Shown here: positions 14,332 through 39,000 of the stretch, piece after piece
Layout of the letters: each line of letters opens with the position of its first letter
Numbering within the stretch: position 1 is the stretch's first letter
Source of the DNA: Mesotaenium endlicherianum
Lineage: Eukaryota
DNA length: 64,000 bases
NCBI GenBank assembly: GCA_009602735.1
Contig: WELA01001736.1
Location: 21,837-85,836, forward strand
Reading direction: 5' to 3'
Position numbers and translations under genes: made by a program
The notes under the pieces: generated by a model
What the model was told of the DNA's origin: nothing
Seen by the model: the letters and a program-made list of their open reading frames with translations, nothing else
Database searches by the model: none

Positions 14332-17300
14332 AGTGTCTCTCACGGTGAGTACCTCGTCCGACAAGCAACGTTTTAAACACCTTTTAATTGCATCAGGACG
14401 ATATTGTATCCATTCTGATATTCCTTTAATGCTGAACCTGATGAGTAACTTCATTTGGATGTCAAACAGGTCTTTGGGCCCACGCACTGACCGTGGAAGA
14501 CTATCAAGGTAATTAAGGTTTGTGCCTTTTGTTTGATGTTGCTACCATTGGGACGTAGAATAGACCAAGAAGACTATGGTTTACTATGGCCTTTTCTGGA
14601 AGTAGTGCAAGTAGTGATTCATCGATGCTCTGTAAGGAGTGAGATTAGGTAGCACTCCCTAGACTGGACCATGAAAAGAGAAGAAAATAACTTAGCAGTT
14701 ATCTCTTTCTTTCCTTTGTGCAGATTTGCTAAACAGAGGATGGAGGAGATCAGGGAAGTTTGTCTACAAGCCAGCAATGGACAAGACATGCTGTCCGCCT
14801 TATACAATAAGACTCAACTGCAAAGACTTTGTGGCCTCAAAAGAACAACGCCGGGTCATGAGCCGGATGGAAAGGTATGCCATTTGCATCCCACTGCGAC
14901 CATCAGTATCTGCCCTACTTCACACTCGCAAAACTCTTCATACCAGGATGTGACTTGTGGGGCCTTTTCATAGAGGAAGCCGGTCGTGGGCTGTTGGGTG
15001 CAAACCAAGCTCAAATTCTCATCAGGGAGTATATTGATTTGCCCAACACAGGTACCTCAAGGGAGTGCTGTCTCCGCCGGTGAAAGAGGGGCGCACGTCC
15101 ACTGCCGGTGACTTTGCTTCGGGGCAAGAGGAAGAGGGTGTCGGGGGTATGAATACGGTAAACAGCAAAGAATTTCTGCCTCTTACCAGAGCAGTGCATA
15201 AAAGGGAACATAGACAGGGAGAAAGCAGTCAGGCGCTGCAGCCTCCCACCAGAGCAGTGCATAGAGGGGAACATGGACAGGGAAACAGCAGTCAGGCGCT
15301 GCCTCAAGGAAGAACTTACGTTCTTCCTCCTGCATCCTTTCGGGACAATAGCGTCCTCAGTAAGCTGGTCTGCGAAGTGGATGCTGCAGTGAGGTTCTGC
15401 CAGGTAGTAGGTGAGCTCCCAGAGCATGCTGTGTTTGCGCCGGTGGCTGTGCGTGCCACGCCGGCAAAGGTGAGGGCACAGCTGAAGAAGAAGACAAAGA
15501 AGAAGAAGGAGAAGCAGCAGCAGCAGCAGCAGCAGAAGGAGGAGGAGGAGGAGGAGGTGGAGGAAGCAGACGTGGCCTACACGAGCAACGTAGCCTTCTC
15601 CATCTCGGGACACCTCAGGCGCCTGGCTGCGATGGACGCTTCTGCTTCTGCAACAGCAGGCAGACACGAGGCGGTAGCAGTAACAACAGCAGCAGCAGCG
15701 GCAGCAGCTCCATCAGGTAACTCTTGGGGGCCAGCAGAGGTTGCAACAGGCATGGACCACGCGGTGGAGGGGCAAGGCGAGAGCGAGGAGGCTGGTAGGG
15801 ACAGAGCTCGGTGCCAGAATGAGTTAGCCACGGCGACAAGAATGCCAGCTGATGGCGAGCAGCTTCCTCCTGGGAGTGGGAAGCCGCCAGAAGCGATGCA
15901 GCGGAGACGCGGCAGCTCACATGTAGAAGATGCAGCAGGAGGAGGAGGAGGAGGAGGAAGGGCAGGAGGAGCACATGCGGTGGCTGAGATGTTGGCGCGC
16001 AGGTTGCAGGGGGTGGGGGTCAGCCTACCTGGCGGTCTGAAAGCAGAAGCTCTCAATGGCCATCTCAATTTTGTATCGCATCCGCAACCACAACCGCAGC
16101 CGCAGGGCCAGGCAGTAGCCATGGCGGCTGTTGGTAGCAGCCCGCGAGGTCTTGCAGAAGCAGAGAGTAAGTCAACGGTAGGCTCTGATCCATTTGCTCC
16201 AGAGCATATGCAGAAGCTTCCACAGAAATGGGCAACTGATGCTCACAACACACATACCAAGGGGACATCTGGACTCCCTGATGACGCCCACAAGGGAGCA
16301 GCAGCCGCAGGAGGAGGTGAGGGATTCAGTGGTGCACCACAAGGCACAAACACGAGCATGCGCTCTTGCGGGGGGAAAGAAAAGCTACCCCGCCACCACC
16401 ACCACTCCCACCAACCCCACCACCCCCACACTAGAATGAAAGGAGGGGGGCAAGGACAGGAGGCAGCAGCAGCAACAGCAGGAGCAGCAGCAGCAGCAGA
16501 AGTAGGACTCGAGAGCTCCCTGGGAGGGCTTAAGCAGGAGGGCGGCAGCAGTGCCGCGAGCAGCCGGGGGGGCCCCACTGCTCCATCGAAGCCCAAGGAG
16601 GGGGCGACGCGCGAGCTGCAGGTCACGCTTGCCAGGTCAGCATTCGACGCGGAGGAGTTCCAGCTGTTCAAGAAGTACCAGGTGGCCGTGCACGGCGACA
16701 AGCCCGGCAGCGTGACGCCCGCGCACTACCGGCGCTTCCTCGTCGACTCCCCCCTCATCCCCGTGGCGCCGCGCGCCGATGGCTCCACGCCGCCCTGCGG
16801 CTTCGGGTCCTTCCATCAGCAGTACCGCGTGGACGGGCGCCTCATTGCGGTGGGCGTGGTGGACATCCTGCCCACGTGCCTGTCGAGCAAGTACTTGTTC
16901 TGGGACCCCGAGTATGCGTTCCTGTCGCCGGGGAAGTACTCGGCGCTGCAGGAGGTGGCGTGGGTGCGGGCGGCGGGGGGGGCGTGTGCGTCGCTGGCGT
17001 ACTATTACTTGGGGTACTACATCCACAACTGCCCCAAGATGAAGTACAAGGCGGCCTACGCGCCCTCCGAGCTCCTCTGCCCCCTCCGCTTCCAGTGAGT
17101 GCCTGACCCACACGCGCACGCACACACACACACACACATACGCACACACACCAACACACACACACACACATACACACGCACCCATGAATGCGTGTGTGCG
17201 TGCCTTCCTTTTCCTGCTCTTCTCGGCCTGCATGTCCTGCTTTGTTGTCGCGGGCTCTTGTCAGAAACGGAGGTGGATAAGTCCAATCGGACGAAGCGGA

Positions 17301-19393: not shown

Positions 19394-21376
19394 TGGATTG
19401 GGCGGAGTGATGAGACATCTGTACTGGGCAGGTGAATGGCCATAGTTCGTTGAAATACAGCTGGCGGTTGGCATGCGGAGGTTGTCGCTTTTGTGGAGAT
19501 GTTGAAGTTGCTGCTTTTCCAATTTTCTAGGTCAATAATCTTCCCGGGTGCTATGTGATTGAAAAGCTTAGGCATCTCGCTGGTGCAACTACCTAGCTTT
19601 AGAACACGAAGGTTGGGCGGTATCTTCTTACAGGTGACAGTGGGGACATTATGAAAGGCCTCTACGTGCCAGTGCTCTGGCAGGGTTGTCAGACGGGGTT
19701 ACTGGCGTTCTTCATTGCAAGGGATTGACATTGTGTAGATGCATGTAGGTTAGTGCTTCAGAGTGTTGCTCGAGAGTGAAATGGGGTTCAATATACAGCC
19801 AACTACATTACCTGACATGAGGTGCAGAATGGATTAAGTTGCAGGCAGGACGTCACAAGCATGTGAACTTGTTTTGGAGCAAGGATGTGCGGATTGTTGA
19901 TAGTGCAAGTGTATAGGAGGTTGCACAGCGTAGAAGTTGACAAGGGATCACATCCTGGTGACTTTAAGCAGTTCTTCGTGGTGACTTTGCACTCTGGATC
20001 TTGTTCCTTCACTGCTTGGCAACTACTCATTTTCCATGTATTAAAACAACTCTCCGGCACAACAGCTGACGACGACATGTCTTTTTTATTAACTGCGCTT
20101 GAGAGCTCCAGTGCACACAGTGGCCATGCTTCCTTACTCCACATACGCAGATGTATGAGCAGATATAAAGCTCATCAGCAAATCTTGGAGAGACAAAGAA
20201 GCACGAAACAACGAGGTCCAGCAATAAAGACACGTCAAAATATTGATACATGTAGCAGAAAAGCACATGAAACACCACGAGAAAGAGTGACACTTGCTTT
20301 CCACTTCAGTGACCTCAGAAATGACGCGTAAACATGATGCGCTGTGCATGGACACACACAGCAATATTGATAGATTTCTGCCCTGAAGATTACACTCTCA
20401 AAAGTCATACCAGAGCTGCATGCAAACAGACCCCCTGCTGCCTGATGGCCCCTTTTAATGGCAAGGCCATGCCCCACCTATCGGAGCAACCTGAAGCCTT
20501 TCTGTTGACTCCTTGGCATACTTCCTGCCCCCATAACATGTTCCCAAGGGCATTCTCTTCATCCGCTCTTTCGCCCCACTGCAAGTGATTCTGCAATGAT
20601 AGACTGGTGTCATACTTTAGAACAACAACTTTGACATTGATGCTACATGCACTGCGCTGAAATCACATAAAATAAAACGAGTTGGCGTACTCTGTTGCTC
20701 TATACCTACTTCTCATTGCTCCCTGCAGCCGAGAGACATCGGTGAAGTATCTCATTGTGTGTTAAAATCATCTGCCAGGCTACCACGAGAAGGGCTGGAG
20801 GCTGTGATTCTTGTGGCCTGGAGTGAGAGAGCAGGGTAGCAGGCTTTCAGGCGTAGGCTACACGTCAAGGACAGGGCTTCTTACCTACTCCCCCCCCCCT
20901 TCTGCTCTTTGATGCTACTGGAAACGAGAAAAGCACAAAGACTAACAAGCTACAAGGGGCATACACATGTCAAAATGGAGGAAAGTTGCTGTGCCAGAAT
21001 GCCACAATGCTGACCCCCAGCATCTGTCTGCTGAAAGGTTGCCAACAACAGTCAACAACGAGCTCACGCATGCAACGCACGTAGATGCATGAGTTCATGT
21101 ATGCGATGCAGATATACACATTTAATCAGCAACTAACACCAGTACTTGCCCTCCGAACGTCAATAATTAGCTGGCGTGAAAGTTGGAAGGTCGCTGAGGA
21201 TGATTCAACAAGTCACAACGATAGTGATGTTCTGAGATCCCAAACAGTTCCGCCTGTTCCTCTTGATGATGCATGGCTCCCACCCTCAGTGCTCCCTGTA
21301 GGCTGCCCCCCTACACGCCCACGCCGCTTCACACCATGCCGACTACAGGACGAGGGACCGGTGGCAGCAGCAGTGC

Positions 21377-22753
21377 GTGCGCGACGCGCAGGCTCTGGCC
21401 CGCCCAGTGCCCGAAGAGGCCTTGCAGGACGCGCGTGCGCGCTGGCGCACTTATCACGCACATTCTCGCATGGCTCGCCCGCAGCCGCTGCTCGAGCGCA
21501 TTCCTCAACTTACTCGCCACTACGCAGAGCTCGCAGTGGCGGCCCTCCGCATGGAGCCCCATCAGCACAGTTTGCTGCGCTCCTATCCACCGCCAGCGCA
21601 GGCCGGCGATCCCGCCCTGGGCTGTCGCCCCCTTCCTACGCCTATCTACATCGCACAGCTCGACGAGCGTCCCGGCGGCATTGTCCTTGTCGAGCTCTTC
21701 GCCGGCATTGCAACAGGGTTGCTGGCCACCCTGCAGGCTGGCATCCCCGTACGTCGGTACGTCTACGTGGACCCCGATGGCGAGGCGCAACATGTCGCCC
21801 GCAGGCAGATAACCTTATGCCACGAGCGTTTCCCAGAGCTCTTCCCTGAGTATGCCTTCTACCGTGCCCAGACTGACTGGCCCATGGACATCCGCGACAT
21901 TACAGCCGAGCACATCACGCGCCTCGGGCCCATCGACCTCATCATTGCTGGCTGGGAGTGCCAAGGCTTCTCCATTGCGGGACGGGGCGGCGCGCTCGGT
22001 GACCCGCGTACGGCCTTGTTCTGGCACCTGCTCCGCGTCCTCAACATGGTTGAGGACCGCCAGCCGCCACACACGCTCGCCTGGGTGTTGGAGAACGTGG
22101 TTGTCCGCCACGATTCTCGGCCCAACGTCAGCGCCGACTTTTTCCTCTGCAGCAGCTACGTCGGTCGTGAGGCAGTCATCGACGCCGCTCAGATTGGTTC
22201 CTTCGCGCATCGCGTGCGCGCCTACTTCACCAACCTGGCCATGCCAGGCACGCTTGAGGCATTAGCGGCCGCACATCCACGCCACACGCGCAACGTTGAC
22301 TCCATCCTCGACGTGGCGCGCCTGGCCCAGCGCGTGGTCGCCCTTCCGCATCCTTCTCAGGCCCAGTGTGAGGTCCTCCGCGACGTCACGCGGGCGCTTC
22401 CTACGTTCGTGAGTCGCTACGACAGCGCGGCCTACGTGGGCGACCAGCGCGGCATGATCATTGACCTCGAGACTGGCATGTTCCAACAACCCCGTGCCGT
22501 GGAGATGGAGCGTGCGATGGGCTTCCCTCCGCACCTCACACAGGTGGACGGCATCACCGAGGTCAACCGCGTGCGTCTCCTTGGCCAGGCTATTGATGCC
22601 AACGTCTTGACGTGGCTTCTCTTGCAGACACAAGCCCTGACTCCCCTTTACGCCCAGGCTCGTGATCCTGAGATGGACCAGTCCTATGACGCCATTGATC
22701 GCGATTCCGACGGCGACGGTCGCGCCCCGCCTGGTACAACCTGGCATTCCTAG
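21377..22753 (+). CDS. C5 cytosine-specific DNA methyltransferase domain (DNMT3/Dcm-like) carried by retrotransposon A
   Basis: Ordered C5-MTase motifs: I VLVELFAGI (~21683-21709), II YVYVDPD, III DIRDI, IV IDLIIAGWECQGFSIAG (catalytic Cys at 21959), VI WVLENV (22091), VIII HRVRAYFTN (22208), IX EMERAMGFP, X RVRLLGQAID (~22570-22597). Confidence 0.93.
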   Translation: MRDAQALARPVPEEALQDARARWRTYHAHSRMARPQPLLERIPQLTRHYAELAVAALRMEPHQHSLLRSYPPPAQAGDPALGCRPLPTPIYIAQLDERPGGIVLVELFAGIATGLLATLQAGIPVRRYVYVDPDGEAQHVARRQITLCHERFPELFPEYAFYRAQTDWPMDIRDITAEHITRLGPIDLIIAGWECQGFSIAGRGGALGDPRTALFWHLLRVLNMVEDRQPPHTLAWVLENVVVRHDSRPNVSADFFLCSSYVGREAVIDAAQIGSFAHRVRAYFTNLAMPGTLEALAAAHPRHTRNVDSILDVARLAQRVVALPHPSQAQCEVLRDVTRALPTFVSRYDSAAYVGDQRGMIIDLETGMFQQPRAVEMERAMGFPPHLTQVDGITEVNRVRLLGQAIDANVLTWLLLQTQALTPLYAQARDPEMDQSYDAIDRDSDGDGRAPPGTTWHS

Positions 22754-22918: not shown

Positions 22919-24609
22919 ATGGCAGCAGCTGACGAGGAGAGGGCACCCGAGGCAGGTCAAGTGCAGCCAGCTGCAGGACAGGTGACGCCTGCAGACACAC
23001 AGATCGCGCCAGCAGCAGGGCAGGAGGCGCCAGCCGCAGCGCAAGAGCCACCACCGGTTGTTCCTACTTGGAAGCTGGGGGGGACTCTCACTAGGGCACA
23101 GGCTGCTCAGCTAACGGCATTGCTGGATGCACGGCGCAGTGCCAGCTTTGCCAGCGGCATGCACGATCTTGGGCGCTACAAAGGCAACCCTATGAGGATA
23201 TCCCTCCAGACAGACGTGCCCATCTTCCAGAAGCGCTATCGCTACAGCCGCTTTGAGGACGACCTGATCAGCACGCAGACAGGCAAGCTAGAGGAGTGTC
23301 AGCTCATTCGTGAGTCTGCCTCCACCTACGCTGCGCCCACAGTCATGCCAACTAAGAAGGACGCCTCAGGCAACTGGTCTGAGAAGAGGATGTGCGGTGA
23401 CTATCGTAAGCTTAACGAGGTCACTGAGCAGGACAGATACCCTATGCCGACCCCTGACGAGATCTTCGACGACATCGGCGCTTGTACTTGGTTCTCGGTG
23501 CTGGATTTGAGGCAGGGCTTCAACCAGATACCCACTGCGGAGGAGGACCAGCATAAGACGGCTTTTGGGGATCGCAGCGTCTCTACGAGTGGAGGGTTAT
23601 GCCCTTCGGCTTAAAGAATGCTCCTGCCACCTTCCAGCGAGTCATGGATAAGGAGCTGGCAGGGCTCCCCTTTGCTCGGTGCTACATCGATGATGTGCTC
23701 GACTTCGGTGAGACGTTTGAGGAGCACGTGGCATATATCACTACAGTTCTGGACCGCTTGGAGGCCGTTGGGCTCAAGTGTCATCCAGGCAAGTGCACCT
23801 TTGGGACCCGGGAGGTGGAGTACCTCGGGCATCTTCTGTCTTCCAATGGTTTGGCTCCTCAGCTGGCCAAGATCTCGGCCATCACAGGCATCCCGCCGCC
23901 GACCGACCTCTCGCAGTTGAGGGCCTTTCTTGGCATCGCCAACTACTATCGCCACTTTGTGCCTGGGTGCAGCGAGCTGGCCAAGCCGCTCAACGACTTG
24001 CTACGCAAGGGCGTTGCCTACGTGTGGGGACCAGAGCAGCAGGCAGCGTTTGACAAGCTCAAGGAGCTGTTGGTGAGCGCCCCAGTACTACGGCGGCCTG
24101 ACAATTAGAAGCCCTTCATCCTCCACACCGACTGGTCGCAGGCAGGGCTTGGAGCAGTGCTGGTGCAGGAGCATGACGGCTTCGAGCATGTGGTGGCGTA
24201 CGCCAGCCACAGCAACAACCGTGCCGAGGGCAACTACGGCTCCTATGAGGGAGAGTGCCTGGCAGCGGTGTGGGCGATGGTGCATTTCAGGCACTATCTC
24301 TACGGCACCCACTTCCGCTTGGTCACCGACCATCAGCCACTCAATAGGCTCATGACGTCGGAGCGCCTGACAGGCAAGTACGCACGGTGGGCACTCACCT
24401 TGCAGGAGTACACCTTTGACGTGCACCATCGTCCAAGGTCGACGAACCTGGACGCTGACGGCCTCAGCTGCAACCCGCTGCCCTCTTTGCAAGACCTTAC
24501 AGTAGCACGCCACGATGAGGATGAGCCAGTGGCCTGGCACGCGGCGGCATTCCTGGCCTTCACCGTTGACGGCGACGTGCGGCCCGCAGGGCTCACTAGC
24601 CTAGACTAA
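22919..24609 (+). pseudogene. Element A reverse transcriptase and RNase H (disrupted)
   Basis: RMCGDYRKLN, RYPMPTPDEIF, FSVLDLRQGFNQI, HKTAF, a 1-nt frameshift at ~23566, MPFGLKNAPATFQ, CYIDD, LRAFLGIANYYR, an in-frame TAG at 24106-24108, then FILHTDWS..GLGAVL, VAYAS, ECLAAVW, LVTDHQPL and ADGLS. Confidence 0.93.
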
Positions 24610-25807
24610 GGTTGTCGCCGACGTCGTCAGCAGCTGCACACTTTGCGACCGGGTGCGCTTGAGCTTCACAGCCCGCACCGTCGCTCTCAGCTCTCTCCCT
24701 ATTCAGGGGCTATTCTACAGGTGGTCGCTCGACTTGGCTGGGGAGCTGCCCAAGTCTCGCCGAGGCAACCTCTATGTCTTGGTGATGATCGAGCACATGT
24801 CCAAGTGGATCGAGCTTGTGCCGTTGCCCAGCAAGGCCAGTGAGGGGATTGCCCAGGCATTCCTTGATCATGTCCTTAGCCGCTTTGGCGGTTGCCCTGA
24901 GGTCCTCACCGACCAAGGCAAAGAGTTCCAGGCCAGCTTTCAAAAGCTGCTAGAGCGCTCGATGATCGACCACCGCACCACCTCCCGCGACCATCCCCAG
25001 GCTGACGGCCTTGCAGAGCGCATGGTGCAAACCGTCAAGCTTGGGCTGCGGAAGTACTTCCTGGCCCACGACAGCACCCACTGGGACGACGCCCTCCCAT
25101 GGTTGGCTATGGAGTACAGGTTCATTAAGCAGGCCTCCTTGGCCTCGCATTCTCCCTACTTCCTTCTCTACGGCCGACAGCCAGTCCTGCCCGCAGCAGC
25201 CAGGACCGTGGCCGAGAACGTTTTGGACTTGGACAGTCCCGAGACGTGGAGCACTCTTATCGGGCAGCGTGCACTGCTCTTTCGGCGCCTGATGCCCATG
25301 GCCATGGACAACCTCAGCATTGCTCAGCACCGCGACACACTGAGGTATGCCGTGACCCGTGGAGGAGCCTATCGCCCGCGAGTGTTGCAATTCTCCGCAG
25401 GTGACTTCGTGTACCTGCGACGCCAAACAAAGAACACCCTCAACACCAGCAGCTCGCCCGTCATCCTACGCGTCAAGCGTGTCTTGGCGTCAGGAGTTCT
25501 AGAGCTGGAAGGCGCAGATGGCCGTCTTCACAAGGACCACACAAAGAATTGTGGACCATGCCACCTTCCTAACCTTGACATGCAGGTTCGTCCCCGCGAC
25601 GCGAGGCCGCCCAAGGACTGGGCGTGCCAGATTTGCCACAGCCCCGGCCAGGAGGCCAGCATGCTAATCTGCGACAGCTGCAACCTCGGCTTCCACATCG
25701 GTTGCCTAAACCCGCCGCTGGCCCGCATGCCAGCTGGCGACTGGTTTTGTAGCGACTGCACTGCTTTAGCTCTAGACAGCGATCACAGCCCATCAGCTGG
25801 TGGCTGA
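24610..25807 (+). CDS. Element A integrase (N-terminal HH of the zinc finger missing) with a C-terminal PHD finger
   Basis: CTLC, WSLDLAG (D), VLTDQGKEF (D), HPQADGLAERMV (E), a degenerate GPY/F-SH3 region, then a C4HC3 motif CQIC..MLICDSCNLGFHIGCLNPPL..PAGDWFCSDC at 25625-25759. Confidence 0.92.
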
Positions 25808-25822
25808 GAGCTGGGGGGGGAA

Positions 25823-25956
25823 TTAAAATATTTGACGAGTGATTATCGTTTGGCTATAAAGCCACATGTATTATAGACTTCATTGCAGCAAAGCCTGCTT
25901 GCATATTATGCATTGCTTGTGTCATTGATACGCACCCGACCTCCTACCGCACGACA
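25823..25956 (+). repeat. Short (134 bp) 3' LTR of element A
   Basis: Follows the PPT and ends ...cgacCA-like (gcacgaca). A near-identical copy at 26977-27110 begins TG; this copy has TT. Confidence 0.7.
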
Positions 25957-25958
25957 GC

Positions 25959-26974
25959 TGTCATGATTTATTAGGTCGAGGTTGACGTACAAGACCAAGC
26001 TCTACGTGTGTGAACCATCAACCTAGGAAGACCAAACTTTGCATTGAATTTACGCATCCATATGTTGACCTTCTCTAGATTTTCGAGTCACCAAAGTGTA
26101 GCGCGTCGAAGCATCTTCCGAATGGCACCGGTTTCGCGTCATTTGGTTAATTATTGAGCGAGATAGACGCGATCTAGTCCGCACTCCTTTCGGCACCTAG
26201 CGGAATCACACCAAATGGCCAACATGTGACTCAATGCACCCAAAGGTGACAATGTTGACTATTCGTGACCCCAAGGACCCCTAGCTTTGTGCGCACAAAT
26301 CCGCGAGCCCCTTAGATTACATAAGTCTTGCATTTCCATAGTATAAGTGCATCATTGAGGCTATTACTTGGTGACTGCATCACCTACTTCTAGAGGAAGC
26401 TTCCTCAAGTTTTAGATTCACTTTTGAGGCCCTATCTAGGTAGAACTACCCAAGGTAAGCTCCACCAATGAGAGACACTTAGCATATTCTACGTGCTTTG
26501 CTTTGATTGGTTTGAGTTATGCTTAGCCTATAGGAGTGCTAGTACATGCCTTGTACACATTAGTGGACATAGGAGAGCCTCCTAGAGTGACTACATGCAT
26601 TGGATCCGCCGCATACGACGCCGGGTTTTCAGGAGTATAAGTGCTAGAGATGTCCCTAGAGGAACATCTTTTTAGAAGTCCCATTATGCCAGTTGTAAGT
26701 CACACAGATTATCAGTAAAGCTTACACTTTTTATCTCTTGTGTTTTCAGGACCACTTAGTCTCTCTCTTGTGAAGAGCAAGCCTTGCTGGCGTCCAGTCA
26801 CTAGAAGAACTTCACAAGTGGTGAGCAAAGTCACAACTTATACCCCCTGCCATAGGACTACTCTTGAAGATCATGATGTGCTTCTAGTGATCTTTTGGGC
26901 CAGTCTTCATTAGTTGTTTTCCTACCAGATTACAGTCTTGAGGTGCTCACTCTGGAGAGTACACACTCCTTACT
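25959..26974. mobile_element. Unrelated ~1-kb LTR-like fragment (solo or truncated LTR)
   Basis: Starts TGTCATG, non-coding, contains TATAAG boxes and resembles the other LTRs here in composition. No partner copy or TSD found. Confidence 0.45.
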
Positions 26975-26976
26975 AA

Positions 26977-27110
26977 TGAAAACATTTGACGCGTGACTAT
27001 CGTTTGGCTGTAAAGCCACATGTATTATAGACTTCATTGCAGCAAAGCCTGCTTGCATATTATGCATTGCTTGTGTCATTGATACGCACCCGACCTCCTA
27101 CCGCACGACA
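26977..27110 (+). repeat. Second copy of the element-A short LTR, followed by a PBS-like TGG
   Basis: TGAAAACATTTGACG...CCGCACGACA with about 5 mismatches to 25823-25956, followed immediately by tggccaaccgtgaagctc. Confidence 0.75.
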
Positions 27111-27583
27111 TGGCCAACCGTGAAGCTCAGTGGCGTGGATGGAAGCCATAGTTGAGGAAGAATGGGGACTCCTGGGTAGAGGCCTGCGTCGTGTTGTTGT
27201 AGGCGAACTCCAAGGGGGTCAAGTACATGTCCCAGTCTTGCTCTAGAGTAGACACGTAGGCCTTTAGAAAGGTCTTTAGGGTACGATTTGTACGCTCAAA
27301 TTGCCCATCCGATTGCGGGTGGTAGGCAGTGGACATATCCTGCGTCGTACCCAAGTTCTTGAAGAGATTTTTCCAAAAATAACTTGTGAATCTTGGATCT
27401 CTATCCGACACAATTCTTGATGGTAGTCCATGGAGTCGGAAGATGTTGTCAAAGATGAGTCTTGCAAGTTGTGGTGCTGTAGCCTTAGTCGTCGTGGGAA
27501 TAAACTGAGCCATCTTGGTAACTCTGTCCACCACCGTGATGGCCTCGATGGGTCACGGGCAGGCCCACGATAAGATTCATTGA

Positions 27584-30500
27584 TGAAAGGGGCCGAGTGC
27601 CCTAGTGCAAGCGTAGTAACTCACGAGAAAAGGAACTAGTTGCAATCATACTAAAGAGTGCAGCGGCATATTGCTAAGAAAGCTTAGGAAAATTACTTGA
27701 CATTTTTAGTGGTAAGAAAGTGCTCACAAATGGTGTAAGATGAAAGGCCTTGTCATTACAAACCCGTAGAAATTTACAGAAATGAAAACTGATAAGAAAC
27801 AAAGAAGTTATGCCTATTTATAATTTTTTGCCTAAGTGCTCCTCCCTAGGAGGAAGCTACGGATTTTCCCAAGTGTTTGTCAAATCGTCCCTTCCAGAAT
27901 ATTCGTGAGTAAGCCGGATCAGTCTAATTTGACGTGTCGGGCCGAATTGACGTCCACATACATGCATCGACATTACTAGAATATTCTATCTTAGACGCGC
28001 TAGGCTAAACCGAAACTTCTAGGTAAATCGACCTAGTCGGCACTCCACGTCTGCCGAACTTATGTGAAGGTTCGAGTTCACTCTAACGGGCCAGATCGCT
28101 CGACGCTGTCGATCAATCCCACGGTCGCGCTCACCGCGAATAAGGACAGTCGTCAACCGACCTCAAAACTAGTTAAACTTTGGAAATCCGTAACTCTCTC
28201 AATACTTGACCAAATTCGATAAACTTTATATCAAAATGACCACAAAAATGCACTCTATACTACTATACAAGCAAAACATACTTTCATGAAACTCAAAAAT
28301 GCACTTTATAAACCTATGACCTTACATCATCCCCCTCCTCAAGATGCGACGTCCTCGACGCATTTTGCAGATAACGCCTCAACTTACTCGTACGATGAGT
28401 CAAGTTGACCTCTGGCTCCCAAGTGTTGTCGTTTGCATGGTAGCCTTTTGACTTGACCAGATACTCTTGAACAAGTCGTTGACCTCGCTTGACTCGTCGA
28501 TCGCCGACAATCGCCTCCACTTTATACTCCAATATATCATCGATCTCGACCGGTGGTGACGGTACAGGTAGGCGTCCTGGATGTCCTTCATTCGGGTCAA
28601 CGTATGGCCGCAAACAACTGACATGGAACACATCATGGATACGCCAGCCTGAAGGAAGTTCCAACTTGTAGGTCACTGGATTCACCTCCTTGAGCACTAG
28701 AAAGGGACCTGTAAACCGTGCCCGCAATTTCCTCTTGCCTGTGAAAGGTAGATTCTCTGTTGACAAGAGTACTTTGTCACCCACATGGTATGTCACTTTC
28801 CTCCTGTGCTTGTTGGCATACTTGACCTGTTCCTCCTGTGCCTTTCGAATACACGTCTTCGCCATATCCCAAGTCTTGGCCATCTGCTCCATAAAAACTT
28901 GTGTAGTAGGAACCTGAGTCTCCTTGGCCTTCTCCAACAAGATGTTCCCTGGATGATATACTTCTCTTCCATAAACCATAGCGAATGGTGACTGCTTGGT
29001 CGATCCCTGCATGCTGTTGTTGTAGGCAAACTCCAACCCTGGTAGCTTCTTGTCCCACTCCGAAGGTTCTTCCATAGGGAAACTCCTGAGCACCTCTTGC
29101 AGAGTTTCGTTGAGCCTCTCACTCTGCCCGTCTGTCTGAGGATGATAGGAAGTGCTCATACTCAACTTGGTCTCCATCAAAGTAAACAATGACCGCCAAA
29201 AGTTGCTAGTAAACCGCGGATCCCGGCCTAAAACAATCATCTTCGGCAACCCATGTAGCTTGAAGATATGATCAAAGAATAGCCGTGCCACATCTGCTGC
29301 CGTAGAAGTCTCCTTCATGGGAATGAAGTGAGCCATCTTGCTGAGTCTATCAGACACAACCCATACTGCATCGTGCCCTTGACCACTGACTGGTAACGAT
29401 GTGATGAAGTCCATAGCAATCTGCTCCCAAGGATACTCTGGAATAGGCAGGGGCTGCAATGTACCTCCCTTCTTTTGATTTGGTGTCTTGTTTCTCTGGC
29501 ACGCATCGCAACTCCTGATCCACTCCTCGATGTCCTTGTCCATATTTCTCCAGTAGTATTCCCGCTTCAGCACGCTTGCCGTCTTCTCGCTTCCAAAGTG
29601 TCCAGCATATAAGCAATCATGATGCTCCGCAAGTAGTAAGTCTCGTAGCTCCTTGATGTCAGGTACCACCACTCTCTTGGAATCACCAAGATACCATATG
29701 CCGTCCTTCTTCTGCATACTCGAGTTGGACTCAGCTGCTCCACCATCAGCAAACTGTGGGTCCTCCTCATAACCTCTCCGAAGCTTCTCCTTGAAGTCCA
29801 TACTCTCTTTGATGACCGAGACAGTTGCAAGGTCACACCTTGTGGATAAAGCATCTGCAGGGTTGATCTTCCCAGGTAAATACTCAATCTTGTGGTCGAA
29901 CTGTTGCAGAAATTCCATCCACCTTGCCTGTCTTGGTGTCAACGTTGGTTGCGTCATAATCTTCTCCAAGCTCTTGTGGTCGGTCTTGATGAACACCTTC
30001 CGACCGTCCACATAACATCGCCAAATCCTCAAAGCCTGGATAATAGCCAACATGTCCCGCTCGTGTGCTGCATAGTTTCGCTCAGCACGACTCAACTTCC
30101 TGCTCTCATATGCCACAGGCTGCAATCCTTTGCCCTGGTCCTGAAGAAGAATGGCTCCCACTGCGAAATTTGATGCGTCCGTGATGATGGTGGAAGGAAG
30201 CTCTGGACTTGCAATTGCCAACACGAGTGCCTGTGTCAGCAGCTCCTTAATCTTCTCAAATGCTTGCTGCTCCTTGTCACCCCACAGCCACTTCTCCTGC
30301 TTCTTCAACATGTCCGTGAGCGGTGCACACACCTTGGCAAATCCTTGAATGAAACGTCGATAATAATTTGCCATGCCGAGGAAACTCCTGAGTTGATGAA
30401 TATATCGCTTTGATACCAGATGAAAGGGGCAGAGTGCCCTAGTGAAAGCGTAGTAACTCACGAGGAAAAGAACTAGTTGCGATCCTACTAAAGAGTGCAG

Positions 30501-31164
30501 CGGCATATTGCTAAGAAAGCTTAGGAAAATTACTTGACATTTTTAGTGGTAAGAAACTGCTCACAAATGGTGTAAGATGAAAGGCCTTGTCATTACAAAC
30601 CCGTAAAAATTTACAGAAGTGAAAACTGATAAGAATCAAAGAAGTTATGCCTATTTATAATTTTCTGCCTAAGTGCTCCTCCCTAGGAGGAAGCTACAGA
30701 TTTTCCCAAGTGTTCGTCGAATCGTCCCTTCCAGAATATTCGTGAGTAAGCCAGATCAGTCTAATCTGACGTGTCGGGCCAAATTGACGTCCGCATACAT
30801 GCATCGACATTACTAGAATATTCTATCTTAGACGCGCTAGGCTAAACCGAAACTCCTAGGTAAATCGACCTAGTCGGCACTCCGCGTCAGCCGAACTTAC
30901 GTGAAGGTTCGAGTTCACACTAACGGGCCAGATCGCTCGACGCTGTCGGTCAGTCCGACGGTCGCGCTCACCGCGGATTAAGGACAGTCGTCAACCGACC
31001 TCAAAACTAATTAAACTTCGGAAATCCATAACTCTCTCAATACTTGACCAAATTTGATGAACTTTATATCAAAATGACCACAAAAATGCACTCTATACTA
31101 CTAAACAATCATAACATACTTTCATGAAACTCAAAAATGCACTTTATAAACCTATGACCTTACA
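27584..31164 (-). mobile_element. Element D: internally deleted chromovirus with two LTRs, inserted in the integrase of B
   Basis: LTRs 27584-28326 and 30421-31164 (TG...CA, roughly 95% identical by eye). 5-bp TSD ATTGA at 27579-27583 and 31165-31169. PBS TGGTATCAAAGC at 30407-30418. PPT gaggagggggatga at 28327-28340. Confidence 0.95.
28314..30506 (-). CDS. Element D truncated pol: RT connection, RNase H, integrase, chromodomain (730-aa open frame)
   Basis: [39 protein letters not shown]...[32 protein letters not shown], and YKVEAIV...[14 protein letters not shown]. Confidence 0.9.
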
Positions 31165-33039
31165 ATTGAGAGGTCCGTCCATTGCCTTTTCGGGATTGGT
31201 AGTGGTTGGAGGAGTCCTCCCGCCTTTTGTGATGATGGCGTGACTCTTTGGCATGTGTCACAGCTCTTGCAGTCCTCCTTGACTTGCTTAGACATGCCTA
31301 GCCAGCAATAAGTCCTGGTTAAAACGCCCGTAATATTTAGGATCCCAAAGTGTCCTTCAAAAGGATTGTCGTGTGCTTCTCGTAGAAGCAAGAGCCGGAG
31401 GTCTAAGTCATAAGGAACACAACTTTGGCCCGTGTCTTGCCTCACCCAATAATTGCCTTTTTGCTTCTTGTATGGGTCCAAGGCTGCTTCTCTGTTCTTG
31501 TAGTAAGGGTCTCTTTTATAAGCGGCTGAACATTGAGCTTCCAGATCTGTTTTCAGGGATGTCATCATTGCGTTTAATTGCAGTCTTGAGAGGGGGTCAG
31601 ACGGGTTTGTCTTGCCGGGCTGGTACTGAATTGTGATGTTGTATTGTTGCAAGTATCCACTCCATCTTGCTTGTCTCCGTGAGAGATACGGGTGCGTCTG
31701 GAGGTGCTTCAACGCCTCGTGGTCCGTAGTGACCAGCACCTTGCGTCCTTCAACGTAGCAGCGCCAAACCTTCAAGGCATGTACAATCGCCAACGCCTCT
31801 CACTCTGTGGTTGTATAATTTTGCTCGACTGGATATAGCTTCCTTGACTTGTAGGCTTTTGTTGCAGTCCCTTGCCTTGGTCTTGAAGTAAGAGTGCTCT
31901 TATTGCATAGGAAGATGCATCGGTGATGACGTGGAAGGGCCAATCTGCGTTTGGACTTGGGAGTGTGAGCACCGGGGATATCGTCAATCTTTGCTTCAGT
32001 TGTTGAAATGCTTCCTCCTCTTTCTTGGTCCGAACGTATGGCTTGTCCTTCTTGAGTTGATCCGTGAGGGGGCCTGCTATGTGCGAGAAGCTCTGGATGA
32101 ATCTCCTGTACCAATTGGTAAATTCCAAGAATGATTGGAGTTCTTTCTTGGTCGTGGGGATTGGCCATTCCTCCACCACCGTGGTCTTCTTGGGGTCCAT
32201 CTTGATGCCATCAGCAGTCACGTTTAGACCTAGGAACTCCACTTCTTGTTTGGCAAACTCGCACTTTAACTCCTTTGCAAATAGCTTGTTTTGCTTCAAA
32301 TTCAAAGGACTTTTTTCAAGTGTCTTGCATGCTCTTCAAAGGTCTTGCTATAGATAAGGATGTCATCGATGAATACCACCACAAATCTGTCCAACATGGG
32401 CTGAAATTTGGTGTTCATCATAGTCATGAAAGTTGCTGGCGCGTTGGTGAGTCCCAATGGCAGGACCATGAACTCAAAATGACATATCTTGTCCTAAACG
32501 CCGTTTTCTCTATGTCAGGTTCAGCAATGCGAATCTGGTGGTAGCCGCTTCTGAAGTCCACCTTCGTGAAGTTCTTGGCTCCAACCAACCGGTCCATAAG
32601 CTCATCCATGCGCGGCAGCGAGTATCTGGATATTCTAGATTGCGCGCAAAATACAGATTCTTGAAGTGATGTCATTCTTGATCTTGATAGTACCGTCTCT
32701 CCAATCAACTTGGGGGTTGTGCTTGTGACCAAGGCGTCCCTAGGATGATGTCGTACTTGCCCAATTGCATGGGAGAAAACACTACTGTATCCTTGAAGGA
32801 CTTGATAGAGAGTGACAAGGGGTACGACTTCTTGGAAGGGGTAGCATAGAAGAATCCGTCGGGCATCATAATCTCCTTGTCGTGGTCAAGAGTTCGCATA
32901 GTAATACCGTGCTTGGTGGCAAATTTGCAACGATGAAGTTGCCTTGAGCTCCGCTATCCACCAAGATGTGGACCTTCTCTCCTCCAAGGTAACCTCTCAA
33001 ACTCATTGGGGCTGGAACGTCGTCTTCAACGAGGGTCTC

Positions 33040-36000
33040 TGAAATGAATCGACTTACCAAATAGGCGATTAACAATTAATAAAGATCTTTATATCAGCAA
33101 GTAATCTTTATGGATTTTCCGTTTCTTGGTCAAACGGCAAAAGGACAACACACTAGCAGTGAACAATACTCGTAAGTCAAATGCGAGTAAACTAGCATCA
33201 ATAATGCAATCAGTAAAACTCATACATAAGCAAGGTTCGAAGACTGTGCGTATCAATAGCTTCTCGCCTTGGATTCAGATCTCTCAGTAAGCTGTACAAG
33301 AGAGTTGGCCTCGTTCCCGAATGCCGAACTCGAGAGCAATGCCTAGCATATGTACATGGAATGAGTTTATTGTTCAACGGCCAGTGCGATGGCACCGCCT
33401 ACCCGGGAGTTAACCACGTTGGTAGGACCTCGGTTAACCAAATCCACCGCCATCTCCCATCATCCCGAATCGCCATCCATCATAGGGATGTCATCTGGCC
33501 ATTCATCTAGCATATCACACTTAGATGTATATTGAGGCAGTTTGCTGCTACCGAGTACGGAAGTCAGCTGGCTGTCAAAGAATGTGTCAGCAAGCTGACT
33601 TAAGTTGACTTCAGCCTGCTGCTTCCGGCTGAGTCATTAAACTGATTATTTTATAAGTCCAGCAGACTCAATATTAACTAAAGTTCAGCAGGCTGAACAT
33701 GATTAACTATTAGATTTAAATGAATATTATATCTACTAATATACTGATTCATTACAATTCCTCCAACTTAACTTGTTGTCGCCTCGACAACATTAAACTG
33801 CAGAAGTGTTAAATAAGGGAACTGAACCTGACCAGCCTCCCTCACTGACTGCCCTTTAGCCTGTCACCTAGGGGGTTGTTCCTGGGGCTCCAGGATCAAG
33901 AGATCTGGACCTAGATCTGGACAGCCCTCTAGTTCTGTCAGCTGGCCTTCTAAAGAATCCCGTTTGTTCTAAAGTTGGACCTCGAGGGGAATAAAGGATG
34001 GTAGCCTGCTCTTCACCCACTTGGGTGTTGATCCCCACATAGACAGGCATTCCAGTAGGATGCTGAAATACATTGGCAAGAGGTACATGTCCCGGAGCGA
34101 AGGGGGAGGCCGCCATACCTCTGGCCACCCCGCGTGGCCCTCTTCTGAAACCCCTGTCCTCTGGGGATTTCTGCCTGTGTCTGCTGCAAATTACAGTCAG
34201 ATCAGCTTCTTCCCCTGCTTGGGCAGGTGGGCTGGGAGAGCGAGTGCGGGGTCCAATTGCCTTCTGGTATTGCTCCATTGTCCCCCTGGCTTCTTCTGCC
34301 TTGCGCTTCTTGTCCTCCTTTTGTGTGGTGGGAGCCATTCTGCACATGTAACCAGGGCACAAGTTAGTAGGATATCGAGCTTTATCCTAGAAATTGCAGG
34401 AAGGGAGTAAGTTCGTATCAGTATGGTATATTCGTTCCTGTTTATCTTACAAGGTGCTTGCTAGGAGTTGACGTAGTTGCGGTGCGCTAGACATAAACAT
34501 ATGAATGTGTTTACAGGTGTGTTAAGTGATGTATGGCTGTGCGAGGCCCTTTTTCCTTTCGCTACAGGTGCTTTATGTGGGCCAGGCTGGCCCCTCCGTC
34601 ACTATGTTGACACTTGGGGTTCACATAACTGTCCCTAACTGTCCCTTTTTCGCTCTCGCACACTAACTGTCTTATATTTTCCCCTCTAACTTAAATGGAG
34701 ACAGGATTGCCTGTCACCTGCCCGTGTCAACTGAAATTACTGTTAAGGAGGTGCTCCAACCGCCCGAAGGTGGAATTGTTTCAACGCCCATTTGGCATTA
34801 GTCAAATAATCTTTAAATTCCTAAGTGTCCCCAGAGGCATCGTAACCCTTCCATCAAATGAGGTACTTCATGACATATTTAGAGGATCGACGGACCGAGC
34901 GAGCGTCTAAAATCTCCTCAACCTCATATTTCTCAGGGTCGCCGTCCAGGACAGCGGGGATCGGTCCCGGTTGGACAGTTAACCGACCTGTGAACAGTGT
35001 ATCACCTTTGATGTAGGGTTCCAGGAAGGAGACATTAAAGACCGGATGACCCTTGTATTCAGCTGACAAGTTCAATTTGTAAGCGTTCTGACCGACACGA
35101 CGCACCACCAAATATGGACCGACCCAGACAGGGCCAAGCTTTTTCTTGACCACACCAGGGAGGTACAGGTGCTGAGAATGTAGTTTGACCAAATCGCCTT
35201 TAGAAAAGGTCAGTTCGCGACGGTGCTGATTAGCGTACTTTTGTTGGTTTTCTTGGGCTCTGTGCAGATTCTGCTGGAATTCTGATTGGGTGTCAGCAAA
35301 GTCCTGAGTTAACTGGAGGGAGAGCGGATTGTCAATCCTTTCAAGGTGAGTTAAAGACTCCCCTAGGACATCTAAAGGAGACTTAGGGACTCTACCCAGG
35401 CTTAGTTCAAAAGGAGTCTTGCCCGTTGACGCGTGCGCCGCACTGTTGACCGCAAACTGGATTTGAGGTAACAGGTCATCCCAATTATCTTGTTTTTGGT
35501 TAATATAAGCTCTCAGTACTTCTTCCAGAACTTGGTTAGTTCTCTCAGTCTGCCCATCAGTCTGAGGTTGTTTGTTGTGCTGAGCAGCTGTGTGACTCCC
35601 GTTAAAGTCCTCCAGAACTTAGAGGTAAATTTTGAGTCTCTGTCTGAGATTATATTAGAGGATAGCCCATGTTGGCATACTACATGGTTGTATAACTGTC
35701 TCGCTGTTTCGAGTGCAGTTACTTTGACAATTGTGGGGATGAAAATGACCATTTTTGTCAGTTTATCCACGACTATTAGTATCGAATCATGCCCATTGGC
35801 AGTTCATGGTAGTGTGACCACCCAGTCCATGGATATCATTTCCCAGCGATCAGCTGGGATGGGCAGCGGTTGTAAGAGGCCCCCCGGTGGTGTGTGCCTT
35901 GACTTATTCTTTTGACACTGGTCACAGGACTTAACGTATTTCAAGACCTCCCGAGGTAATCCCTCCCAATGATAATGTTTTGCCAGTTTGCCAACAGTTT

Positions 36001-39000
36001 TGGCCTGCCCCAAATGCCCACCCAGTAAACTGTCATGTGCTTGACTCGATAAAAGGGACCTTATTTCCACGTTATTAGGAATGACTAGCTTCAGCCTGCC
36101 TGAAGTGATTTTAGTCACCCAGACCCCTCCCTTAAGCTTATACCCGAGTGCAGTAGCACGACACACACCAGTAGTGGGGCTGGGCTCAAATGTTGGATCA
36201 GAAAGGTAGGCTTTCCTAAGTTGTTCAAGGAAGGACTTTTTTACCTTTAGTGAAGTGAGTGCACACAGGACTTTATCTACAGCATGCTCACTAAAGTTCC
36301 TTTCTTGCAAGTCAGGTCTTCTAGAGAGTGCATTAGCAGGATTCAACTTCCCTGATTTGTAGTCGATCTGGACTTGGAACTGCTCCAGCATCTGGCTCCA
36401 GCGGTTCTCCCTCCTCGACAGCTTGGACTTCTTCTGAAAGTGGGTCAGAGCTAGATGATCTGTAATCACCTTAAAAGCTTTACCATGTAAGTATGCTCTC
36501 CACTNNNNNNNNNNNNNNNNNNNNNNNNNNNNNNNNNNNNNNNNNNNNNNNNNNNNNNNNNNNNNNNNNNNNNNNNNNNNNNNNNNNNNNNNNNNNNNNN
36601 NATTTAAATTTCATNCGCTGGATTAAATTTCATAGACTCATACAACACAGGATGCCACTCCTGCCGTACCTTACCATCCTTTGTGGTTTTGTCAGCAGGC
36701 TGCAACAAAATAGCACCCATGGCAAAGTCAGAGGCATCAGTGACCACCTGCACCGGTTTGCTGGGGTCATACACGGCTAGCACCGGGGCAGAACAAAGAG
36801 CATCTTTAAGGGTCTGGAAGGCAGCCTGNNNNNNNNNNNNNNNNNNNNNNNNNNNNNNNNNNNNNNNNNNNNNNNNNNNNNNNNNNNNNNNNNNNNNNNN
36901 NNNNNNNNNNNNNNNNNNAGAATAATTCTCAANAGTCAGTTTACTGGCCTTTGTAGAATAATTCTCAATAAATCTCCTATAGTAGTTAGCCAACCCGAGG
37001 AAGGATCTAACTTCAGAGACAGACTGTGGTACTGGCCAGTCCCTTATGGTTTGGACTTTCGTAGGATCCACACTGATACCTTCTTTGCTGACAATGTCGC
37101 CTAAGAATTCAATGCTTTCTTTAAAGAAATCACACTTGCTCATTTTAGCATATAAGTGATTTCTTCTCAGAGTGTCCTGGACTGTCTTTAAGTGTTCAGC
37201 GTGCTGAGCTTCATCTCTAGAGAAAATTAAAATATCATCCAGGAAAACTTGCACAACCTTATCCAAATAAGGTTTGAAAATGTCATTCATAGCACCCATG
37301 AAGGTCGCAGGAGCATTAGTTAGTCCAAATGGCATCACGTTTATAATGGTCATAACGTGTGCGGAAGGCAGTCTTGTGTTCATCCCCCTCAGCAATTCTG
37401 ATTTGATGGTAACCACTCTTGAGATCTATCTAACTGAACACCTTAGCACCAGACAGGGTATCAAGCAAGTCCTCGATTCTGGGTAAATCATACTTGTTCT
37501 TTACTGTAATTCTGTTCAGAGCTCTGTAATCCACACACATCCGCATACTGCCATGCTTTTTCTTAACAAATAGGATCGGTGCGCCGTAAGGTGAGTTACT
37601 GGGAGAAATATAACCATTTTCCTCAAGCTCTGCAATTTGTGTTTTCAACTCCTCGCTCTCCACGTAAGACAAGCCATAAGTGCGTTGCCAGGGTGGTTGA
37701 CTCCCAGATAATAAATCCATCCTATGATCTACTTCCCTCTTAGGGGGTAGTCCTGGAGGCATATTAAATACATCCGTGTACTGAGCAACAATTTTTGCAG
37801 CAGTAGGGTGCTCCGGAGGGCTTACCTTTTTCTCCACCACTTCTTCAGGTTGAGGAGGTACCTCTCTTAGCAGCAGACAGAACATTCTGTCTTCCTTCTG
37901 GTTCCAGCTTTTGACGAACTCCATTGCATTCAGCAACTTGCATCCTTCTGGAAGCCTCTTCTTTTCCTTCAGTTTCCATCCACACAGGACAAGAGGAAGA
38001 GCACTGGTGGGTGCCAAGTTGGTCTGCCCATCACTGGCTCCTCTCACTTTAACTGTACCTCTGCTCCAACACACTTCAGCTTGATGTCTATTAAGCCAGG
38101 ACCTGCCTAGCACGAGATCATAAAAGCCAGTGTTGAGTACCTCAAATGTAAGCGTTTCTGTTAGAACTGCATTGCCAGAACCTTACTGGACCTCAATAGG
38201 CTTGGTTATAACTCCTCCCGGGATACTTGAGGCATCTCCAAGGAATAGTTTTCTATTCCCTTGGGTGAAGTAGGCAGCCTTAGCCGCTTAACTAAGTTCT
38301 TATGGATAAAAGTATGTGACGCCCCTCCGTCAACAAATGCCCTCACCTTCCTACCTGCAATCATGCAATGCAGTAGGATAGGGGGGACTGTCTTAGCCTG
38401 ACTTTTGCATTGTTCTCCTGACGTAGCAAAGAAATGTTGGACATCAAGTGGAACAAGAGCATCCAGAGAGTGCACTCTCTGAACGTCTATATTGCTGATG
38501 GTCTCCTTTATCTGGTTGTCAGGCATGCATAGTGAATCCAGTTCAGCAGGACCCATAATACCTGCTACGAGGGCAGCTAGTGACGACTCACTATCTCTAG
38601 CATCCTGACAGTCAGTAGACTGGATTACTGACTGTTGCTGTCTTTTAAAGGCTGGTCTTTTCTCTCGACCTTCGGAAGGTGCTTGTTTGGACACTGCTCT
38701 CTGAAGTGACCTGGCTGCTGGCAATGGAAGCAAATCGATTTTGATGAGGCTGGTCTTGGCTTAGTCTTACCACCACCTCTTCCATAGCCGCCTCGAGACA
38801 AATCACCTCTCCCTCGGGACTGAATAGCATTGTACTCATACCCATATTCATCACCCTGATCATCCTCAGCCTGGTCTCCTTCAACTGCATTGTAGGAACC
38901 GTGGGGCTTTTTGACAACCTTAGACACCAAAGCATTACTCTGGCGCTCGTGATTGAACTGCTGCTGATCCCAGGCGTCAGCATCCTGAATCTAGTCAGCC

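Follow-up and report, generated by a model that had tools for sequence, protein, structure and literature searches.

The closest described system is KnitGypsy-Dnmt3 from Klebsormidium nitens, in which an intronless Dnmt3-related domain forms part of the Gypsy Pol and the repeats follow a DIRS-like A-coding-B-A-B order (de Mendoza et al. 2018, PMC5890265). Gypsy-DNMT3 elements are listed for streptophytes only in one source (10.64898/2026.05.21.726589) and are named for streptophytes and dinoflagellates in another (PMC12344493). The EpiLTRs and DAM-LTRs are likewise LTR elements that join methyltransferases with a chromatin reader, but they differ in their chromodomain, their DAM and their DNMT4-sister enzyme, and the accessible part of the EpiLTR preprint mentions no PHD finger (10.64898/2026.05.21.726589). 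Among histone readers that direct the integration of LTR elements, chromodomains are the best known. PHD fingers in retrotransposons have been called widespread (PMC6673714; the accessible part of the REXdb paper, PMC6317226, makes no mention of them), are common in Chlamydomonas retrotransposons (PMC8557442, PMC9940879), and have been surveyed as retrotransposon fusions, Supplementary Table 6 of that survey listing transposon-reader fusions (10.1101/2021.11.30.470311). Gypsy-7a_cRei of Chlamydomonas, which by its description resembles the family studied here in having a PHD in a green-algal Gypsy Gag-Pol and for which the accessible text mentions no DNMT, inserts into intergenic sequence 2.6 times as often as chance predicts, and its authors suggest that the PHD may limit harm (PMC9940879). 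We found no published test of the mark read by transposon PHD fingers, or of targeting by them. REM1 of Chlamydomonas reportedly encodes a PHD in an antisense ORF.

A dead copy of a KnitGypsy-Dnmt3-type element

We analysed a stretch of 64,000 nucleotides from Mesotaenium endlicherianum (the window), in which one element on the forward strand is a broken copy of the already described KnitGypsy-Dnmt3-type Ty3/Gypsy family of green plants, with a DNA methyltransferase of its own. The order of its parts is DNMT3-RT-RNaseH-IN-PHD, with B-A-B repeats at the 3' end and a truncated 5' end (Table 1). Between them, the window copy and its relatives show the Ty3/Gypsy hallmarks, namely PR-RT-RH-IN order, a DDE integrase, a polypurine tract (PPT), TG...CA ends and a short target duplication, and both the Dnmt3 domain in Pol and the repeat layout are those of KnitGypsy-Dnmt3 (PMC5890265). 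The family PHD follows integrase sequence in three proteins of K. nitens (KFL_015960010, KFL_005000010 and KFL_010570010). Locus L039, whose IN-PHD shares 93% identity with KFL_015960010, has the end of a DNMT in frame before the RT. Together these make it very likely that the DNMT+PHD pairing is present in the described family. The element is thus not a novel type: it matches KnitGypsy-Dnmt3, whose relatives carry the same PHD. The PHD is mentioned neither in the text nor in three supplementary files of PMC5890265, although Fig. 4c of that paper may draw it, and a search of accessible paper text found no description of DNMT3 and PHD together in Gypsy. Beyond what the accessible text of PMC5890265 describes, the present analysis adds the 4-bp duplication and the B|A junction, the assignment of the finger to a cage-less class, the spread into liverworts and chlorophytes, and a second position of the DNMT.

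The window copy is dead. It lacks gag, protease and the 5' repeat, carries a stop after the DNMT (22751-22753), an RT frameshift near 23563 and a further stop at 24106-24108, and has lost the first half of the integrase zinc-binding domain to a deletion at 24604-24606, which copies elsewhere in the sequencing runs do not have (loose ends at 24604/24606). Its 5' break lies at about 21320-21350, where a single-copy contig stops at 21346 and high depth starts, and a sequencing run with a perfect match to the left flank contains many diverged copies across the whole element, as judged from summed contig depth, which is not a copy number. RNA from four runs of the same species label leaves the DNMT and RT nearly free of reads and covers IN-PHD at most about 5x, mostly from diverged copies. 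RNA reads of other copies contain a GT..AG intron within repeat A (joint 26452-26748, 4/4 runs); molecule starts cluster at 26000 in one RNA run, and RNA reads also span the A|B junction.

Table 1. Coordinates of features in the window, with the tail regions of chlorophyte-branch loci in the last row.
Feature	Position	Strand	Evidence or remark
SRP receptor alpha N-terminus, host-like ORF	11948-13042	-	
Arginyl-tRNA-protein transferase C-terminus, host-like ORF	15038-17098	+	
DNMT3-like C5 cytosine methyltransferase domain	21662..22642	+	PF00145 E 6e-11; motifs I, IV (catalytic Cys), VI (EN), VIII (RxR)
Reverse transcriptase	23060..24105	+	RVT_1 matches in two frames; tblastn vs intact relatives; DNMT frame, behind stop 22751-22753
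RNase H	24109..24420	+	PF17917 E 1.2e-35; stop 24106-24108 just before
Integrase	24605..25564	+	PF00665 E 1.2e-13; truncated zinc-binding domain; D-60-D-35-E core triad
Predicted SH3-like beta C-terminal domain of integrase	~25394-25564	+	Model strands; PFV/Ty3 integrase fold matches
C4HC3 PHD finger without cage Trp	25625..25759	+	PF00628; ORF stop 25805-25807
Polypurine tract	25806..25820	+	Sequence; G-tract at same place in relatives
Repeat B1	25821..25956	+	136-bp direct repeat, 96%; ends in integrase end motif with CA
Repeat A2	25959..26974	+	Starts TG after 2-bp spacer; 5' partner A1 lost in window copy
Repeat B2, right end of element	26975..27110	+	Ends CA
Right flank, chromovirus integrase sequence cut at element end (insertion target)	27111..27540	-	Translation; tblastn; loose ends at 27109
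Chromodomain of neighbour C (comparator, outside element)	28368..28526	-	PF00385 E 3.9e-12
SWIM/RING finger ORF, host-like	46571-47470	-	
MFS transporter, host-like ORF	55182-56630	-	
Farnesoic acid O-methyltransferase domain, host-like ORF	57425-58216	+	
Tails of chlorophyte-branch loci	L090:11200-11835; L062:10740-11405; L067:2515-3189; L082:1985-2617		

Repeats, ends and the internal junction

The full A-coding-B-A-B layout was found in 7 distinct relatives and A-coding-B in 7 among the listed loci; the window retains the B-A-B of the DIRS-like order, A1 having been lost. Element ends are TG...CA and are flanked by a 4-bp target duplication that is perfect in 8/14 cases, has one mismatch in 3/14 and was not found in 3/14, such duplications occurring with A-coding-B and A-coding-B-A-B copies alike. 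The A-coding-B copies could be primary products, or could result from B-B recombination or assembly collapse. At the internal B|A junction (25950-25965) the sequence is near-palindromic, with integrase end motifs placed head to head around two bases, an arrangement common to relatives. The same head-to-head junction was observed at L025, L043, L051, L056, L057, L070 and other loci, and its spacer variants fit CHG deamination. Symmetric integration of a two-LTR circle was considered, but the mirror product, A-B-A-coding-B, occurs in 0/13 distinct loci with sufficient upstream flank, which disfavours the simple two-LTR-circle model.

A PHD finger in the position of the chromodomain

Translation of the ORF at 24605-25807 on the forward strand gives the protein quoted in the sequence-only reading, in which a core rve match (residues 38-131) is followed by a match to the Pfam PHD family PF00628 at residues 341-385 (E 8.4e-12, 45.4 bits against a cut-off of 24). 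The finger runs from the Cys1 codon, which begins at 25625, to the codon of the final Cys, which closes at 25759. It has the complete set of eight C4HC3 ligands, invariant across 21 aligned fingers. The C4HC3 PHD first read by eye at the integrase C-terminus is thereby confirmed with exact coordinates. Besides the ligands, the finger has Gly at His-2, Asp at Cys1-3, the MLICD motif and PxGxW.

The sequence-only reading held that this PHD replaces the chromodomain carried by the neighbouring elements C and D. The positional part of the claim stands: neighbour C (28314-30542, reverse strand) has an SH3_Tf2-1 domain followed by a Chromo domain, and what is left of a chromodomain in neighbour D, at about 34773-34940 (reverse strand), contains stops. 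A model of the integrase ORF has a beta-rich domain at residues 268-312 ahead of the finger (mean pLDDT 62) and matches the PFV and Ty3 integrases over about 290 columns, which would place the finger in the chromodomain slot after an SH3-like C-terminal domain, as in neighbour C; this shared slot rests on the predicted fold, because sequence similarity between the integrase C-terminal region and neighbour C is not significant (E 0.058). The replacement itself did not hold up. The integrase lineage lies far from the chromovirus neighbours, with a long branch to the 4 chromovirus-like outgroup rows of a 130-row tree, and none of the 248 family proteins among the matches listed has a chromodomain match, which led us to reject a recent chromodomain-to-PHD swap; on these sequences the PHD is an old trait of the lineage and not a local swap. 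Chromoviruses likewise carry a histone reader at the integrase C-terminus after an SH3-like domain, proposed to steer insertion (Gao et al. 2008, as cited in PMC6673714 and PMC6317226), but the reader of the element studied here has a different fold, and its predicted mark is the unmodified H3 N-terminus rather than methyl-K9. The neighbouring region (27111-40886, reverse strand) consists of chromovirus copies nested in one another, whose direct repeats measure about 750 bp (27582-28326/30419-31164 and 33039-33786/40134-40886), and the chromodomain of neighbour C keeps aromatic cage-like residues, as judged by eye.

The finger is conserved across the family

Family proteins were taken from two IN-PHD searches and one DNMT search (best 120 of 328 matches, all 7, and best 120 of 276), which gave 247 proteins, or 248 with the query, 245 of them with an integrase. 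Among these listed matches, from streptophytes and chlorophytes, a PHD is present in 209/245 integrase-bearing proteins, a count biased upward because the query contained the PHD, though the integrase dominates the score; the remaining 36, read by eye, have a divergent finger or are interrupted by a cut or frameshift that falls within or ahead of it. Metagenome loci were limited to the best 80 of 561, some of which are one insertion assembled twice, and 74/80 have a PHD match. Named sources are K. nitens, Calypogeia, Marchantia, Haematococcus, Tetrabaena, Pleodorina and the Chrzof (Chromochloris) models. The finger is thus found in most family copies, whereas its absence from most of them is what the sequence-only reading had named as evidence against itself, and a chance or chimeric PHD was rejected because the finger is family-wide. 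One family RT-IN-PHD protein, P0264 (cluster of P0135), is labelled uncultured cyanobacterium and probably represents plant or algal DNA in a metagenome bin.

The cage Trp of H3K4me3 readers sits two residues before the His. That position, Gly in the window as noted in the sequence-only reading, is Gly in 161, Ala in 11 and Pro in 2 of the 174 intact fingers among the listed matches and aromatic in none, which excludes the H3K4me3-cage class for this finger on sequence. In the same set, Asp follows Cys3 in 163/174 fingers, PxGxW is found in 141/174 and Met at Cys3-3 in 161/174, and the median net charge is -4; residues of this non-ligand surface pocket are conserved from chlorophytes to liverworts. 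Such conservation bears on the idea that the finger is a structural or protein-interaction part of the integrase, serving folding, multimerisation or nuclear import with no reading of chromatin. Residues on the K4 side do vary, and conservation alone is what has been demonstrated, but it extends to pocket residues that are not ligands (Met 161, Asp 163 and Gly 161 of the 174 listed) and these match H3-binding fingers, so we regard a purely structural role as very improbable.

What the finger would read

PHD fingers that read K4me3 have an invariant cage Trp, and readers of unmodified K4 have no cage and carry acidic residues before Cys1 (PMC3241642); the acidic patches of the latter have been described (PMC5415848). 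The window finger was aligned with KDM5A PHD1, numbered as in 10.1101/715474, in an inferred register, in which the equivalents of E305 (K4 contact), D312 (R2) and W335 (A1) are kept. Lys stands in place of D292, Ala in place of D306 of the acidic wall, and Asn in place of D315. On its K4 side the window finger has acidic residues at Cys1-3 (Asp) and Cys3-6 (Glu), whereas Cys1-4 is Lys and Cys3-5 is Ala. The acidic residue that the sequence-only reading placed before Cys1 is therefore present as Asp, but it lies one position off KDM5A D292 and is acidic in 102/174 of the listed fingers. Like the window finger, the unmodified-H3 readers (KDM5A/B PHD1, BAZ2A/B, MOZ/DPF PHD2, BHC80 and UHRF1) have no cage Trp and have Asp after Cys3, PxGxW and the same loop lengths; in contrast to them, the window finger is missing the acidic wall and the second R2 Asp, both of which vary in the family (Asp or Glu after Cys4 occurs in 10/174 listed fingers).

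Comparison with solved structures gave 52 PDB matches at E<=1e-12, which include KDM5/Lid PHD1, WSTF, ATXR5, DPF2/3, BAZ2A/B, KAT6A/B, PHF21A, UHRF1, CHD4 and ORC1b and among which the H3K4me3-cage fingers of ING, BPTF and TAF3 are not named. The top matches are the second fingers of KMT2D and KMT2C, which are non-canonical binders. The proposed likeness to readers of unmodified H3K4 therefore holds in part: the nearest solved relatives are mainly such readers, but the acidic residues are only partly conserved. Binding of the finger to the H3 N-terminus appears quite probable from these comparisons, and a clear preference for K4me0 somewhat less so, though still rather probable; strict K4me0 selectivity we grade as likely only, because the K4-contacting acids are partly conserved.

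The finger might instead be a general tether that holds the H3 N-terminus irrespective of K4 methylation, in the manner of R2 reading by UHRF1, or that binds a non-histone host protein, in which case no avoidance of H3K4me3 would follow. The A1/R2 pocket (Asp 163 and PxGxW 141 of 174) is far better kept than the K4-contacting acids, for which both patches are acidic in 69, one in 83 and neither in 22 of the listed fingers, and the best PDB matches, KMT2D/C PHD2, point the same way, as does KDM5A PHD1, which tolerates K4 methylation, binding all K4 methyl states and the methylated ones more weakly (10.1101/715474). Against this, at least one acidic K4-side patch is present in 152/174 listed fingers, and cage-less readers, BAZ2A/B, DPF3b and MOZ among them, bind more weakly or not at all once K4 is methylated (PMC3241642, PMC5415848). 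We consider a general tether rather unlikely, although it is the strongest of the alternatives weighed here. Canonical or near-canonical N-terminal tails of histone H3 are encoded by 20 of the retrieved contigs (L001-L020, from IMG/VR), several of which bear the label GVMAG.

We favour the reading, at a probability of roughly 0.58, that the conserved PHD binds the free H3 tail with a preference for unmethylated K4 and tethers integration away from H3K4me3 promoters, with the DNMT3 acting separately. The protease would free IN-PHD as one protein, as in established Gypsy processing; the finger would then use its PxGxW pocket and the Asp that follows Cys3 to grip A1 and R2 of H3, as its resemblance to KDM5A PHD1, BAZ2 and MOZ suggests; methylation of K4 would weaken this grip; and the intasome, held on H3 tails without K4me3, would insert with a corresponding bias. 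The DNMT3 domain would probably methylate cDNA of the element itself or its new copy, a role suggested for this kind of element in PMC5890265. In a crude flank comparison, Gypsy coding sequence lay within 500 bp of 5/41 right-end junctions (including two duplicate pairs) and in 20/227 distant bins, that is, with no enrichment for Gypsy coding targets; this test of insertion preference is weak because it used Gypsy queries only and loci without chromatin data.

The DNMT3 domain occupies two positions in the family

The best PDB match of the window DNMT is DNMT3A (E 2.4e-17), and 50/52 full-length family DNMT domains among the listed matches retain the catalytic Cys, with the same count for EN and for RxR. 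Motif IV (about 21950-21965) reads Trp-Glu-Cys in the window instead of the usual Pro-Cys, and the residue before the Cys is Glu in 31 and Pro in 11 of the 52 listed domains. The survey of DNMT and PHD co-occurrence called for in the sequence-only reading found both in one protein in 62/248 of the listed family members. Intact relatives in the window branch encode gag-PR-DNMT3-RT-RH-IN-PHD in one ORF (P0249, P0257), the DNMT3 domain lies inside a single Gypsy ORF in P0249, P0251 and P0257, and the DNMT is in frame with the RT in the window and at 21/31 of the listed loci. The chlorophyte branch has its DNMT between RNase H and IN and a tail after the PHD; the former arrangement was observed in P0174, P0223, P0209 and P0247 and at L062, L065 and L090. 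P0200 and P0229 have the order PR-RT-RH-IN-PHD and no DNMT.

These branches were compared in an integrase tree of 130 rows (FastTree; short IN matches and unnamed proteins with neither RNase H nor DNMT were left out), in which the two are separated with SH-like values of 93 and 98. A 48-row clade (SH-like 93, from FastTree alone) holds the window IN together with liverwort sequences, L039 and a K. nitens protein, and 9 rows without a DNMT in the RH-IN slot fall at three places inside the DNMT-bearing chlorophyte clade. An unrooted DNMT tree of 60 rows splits into the same two positional types.

An ADD is a GATA-like finger plus a PHD that docks on the adjacent catalytic domain. The sequence-only reading saw in the element a possible convergence on the ADD+methyltransferase logic of DNMT3, with a PHD that may steer the element's own DNMT3 to H3K4me0 chromatin. 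As in animal DNMT3, a DNMT3-type enzyme and a predicted K4me0 reader stand in one ORF; the co-occurrence in 62/248 listed proteins and the retained catalytic residues of a DNMT3-like enzyme agree with such coupling, as does the chlorophyte branch, in which 38 listed proteins have the DNMT directly before IN-PHD (and RNase H also upstream). The differences weigh more heavily. In the window branch about 1,300 residues comprising RT, RNase H and IN separate the two domains in a protease-bearing polyprotein (P0249, P0257), which probably splits them by proteolysis; the finger is a single canonical PHD, with no GATA-like finger adjoining the catalytic domain, and no DNMT3 or ATRX ADD is named among its PDB matches; the PHD outlasts the DNMT in some members; and the isolated KnitGypsy DNMT was inactive in yeast, a result that its authors called inconclusive (PMC5890265). 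The proposed convergence is thus not borne out for the window element. The ADD analogy is weak for its branch, the PHD probably does not steer the methyltransferase there, and we hold such coupling to be improbable, in preference for a tether on unmethylated H3K4 with a separate DNMT3.

Tails of the chlorophyte branch reach about 310-400 residues beyond the PHD (P0184, P0241 and P0223). A class I SAM-dependent methyltransferase fold is predicted for their last ~210 residues (pTM 0.73; Foldseek E 3e-5), with weak matches to phage DNA methyltransferases; some tails carry an SPW-like motif. By eye the first part resembles a Tudor domain, and it has no Pfam match; searches of the tail against Pfam, PHROGs and PDB sequences gave weak or no matches. 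If the predicted fold is correct, chlorophyte elements would combine a DNMT3, a PHD and a second methyltransferase, in parallel to EpiLTRs. A G-patch domain (PF01585) was observed in P0156, P0210 and P0213 of this branch, in P0156 between the DNMT and the integrase.

Significance

The surprise of these findings is limited, because the element type and PHDs in algal Gypsy elements have already been published; the window copy adds a dead element to a family on record, and as a lead the chlorophyte branch holds more novelty. The broader proposal, which we put forward as unlikely on present comparisons, is that, in a Gypsy lineage common to chlorophytes and streptophytes, an integrase PHD that reads H3K4me0 serves as a second, chromodomain-independent mode of targeting, and that the processed chlorophyte protein both integrates and methylates at H3K4me0 chromatin. 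If this were true, the chlorophyte-branch protein, with its DNMT3 before IN-PHD and a second methyltransferase-like fold, would be a mobile counterpart of DNMT3-ADD. The family offers a clean test case: a single cage-less finger sits at the tip of the integrase, the DNMT takes two positions, and members with and without it occur naturally. If its finger reads unmethylated H3K4, avoidance of promoters would be explained by a negative mark, and the finger would represent a 45-residue tether for steering integration.
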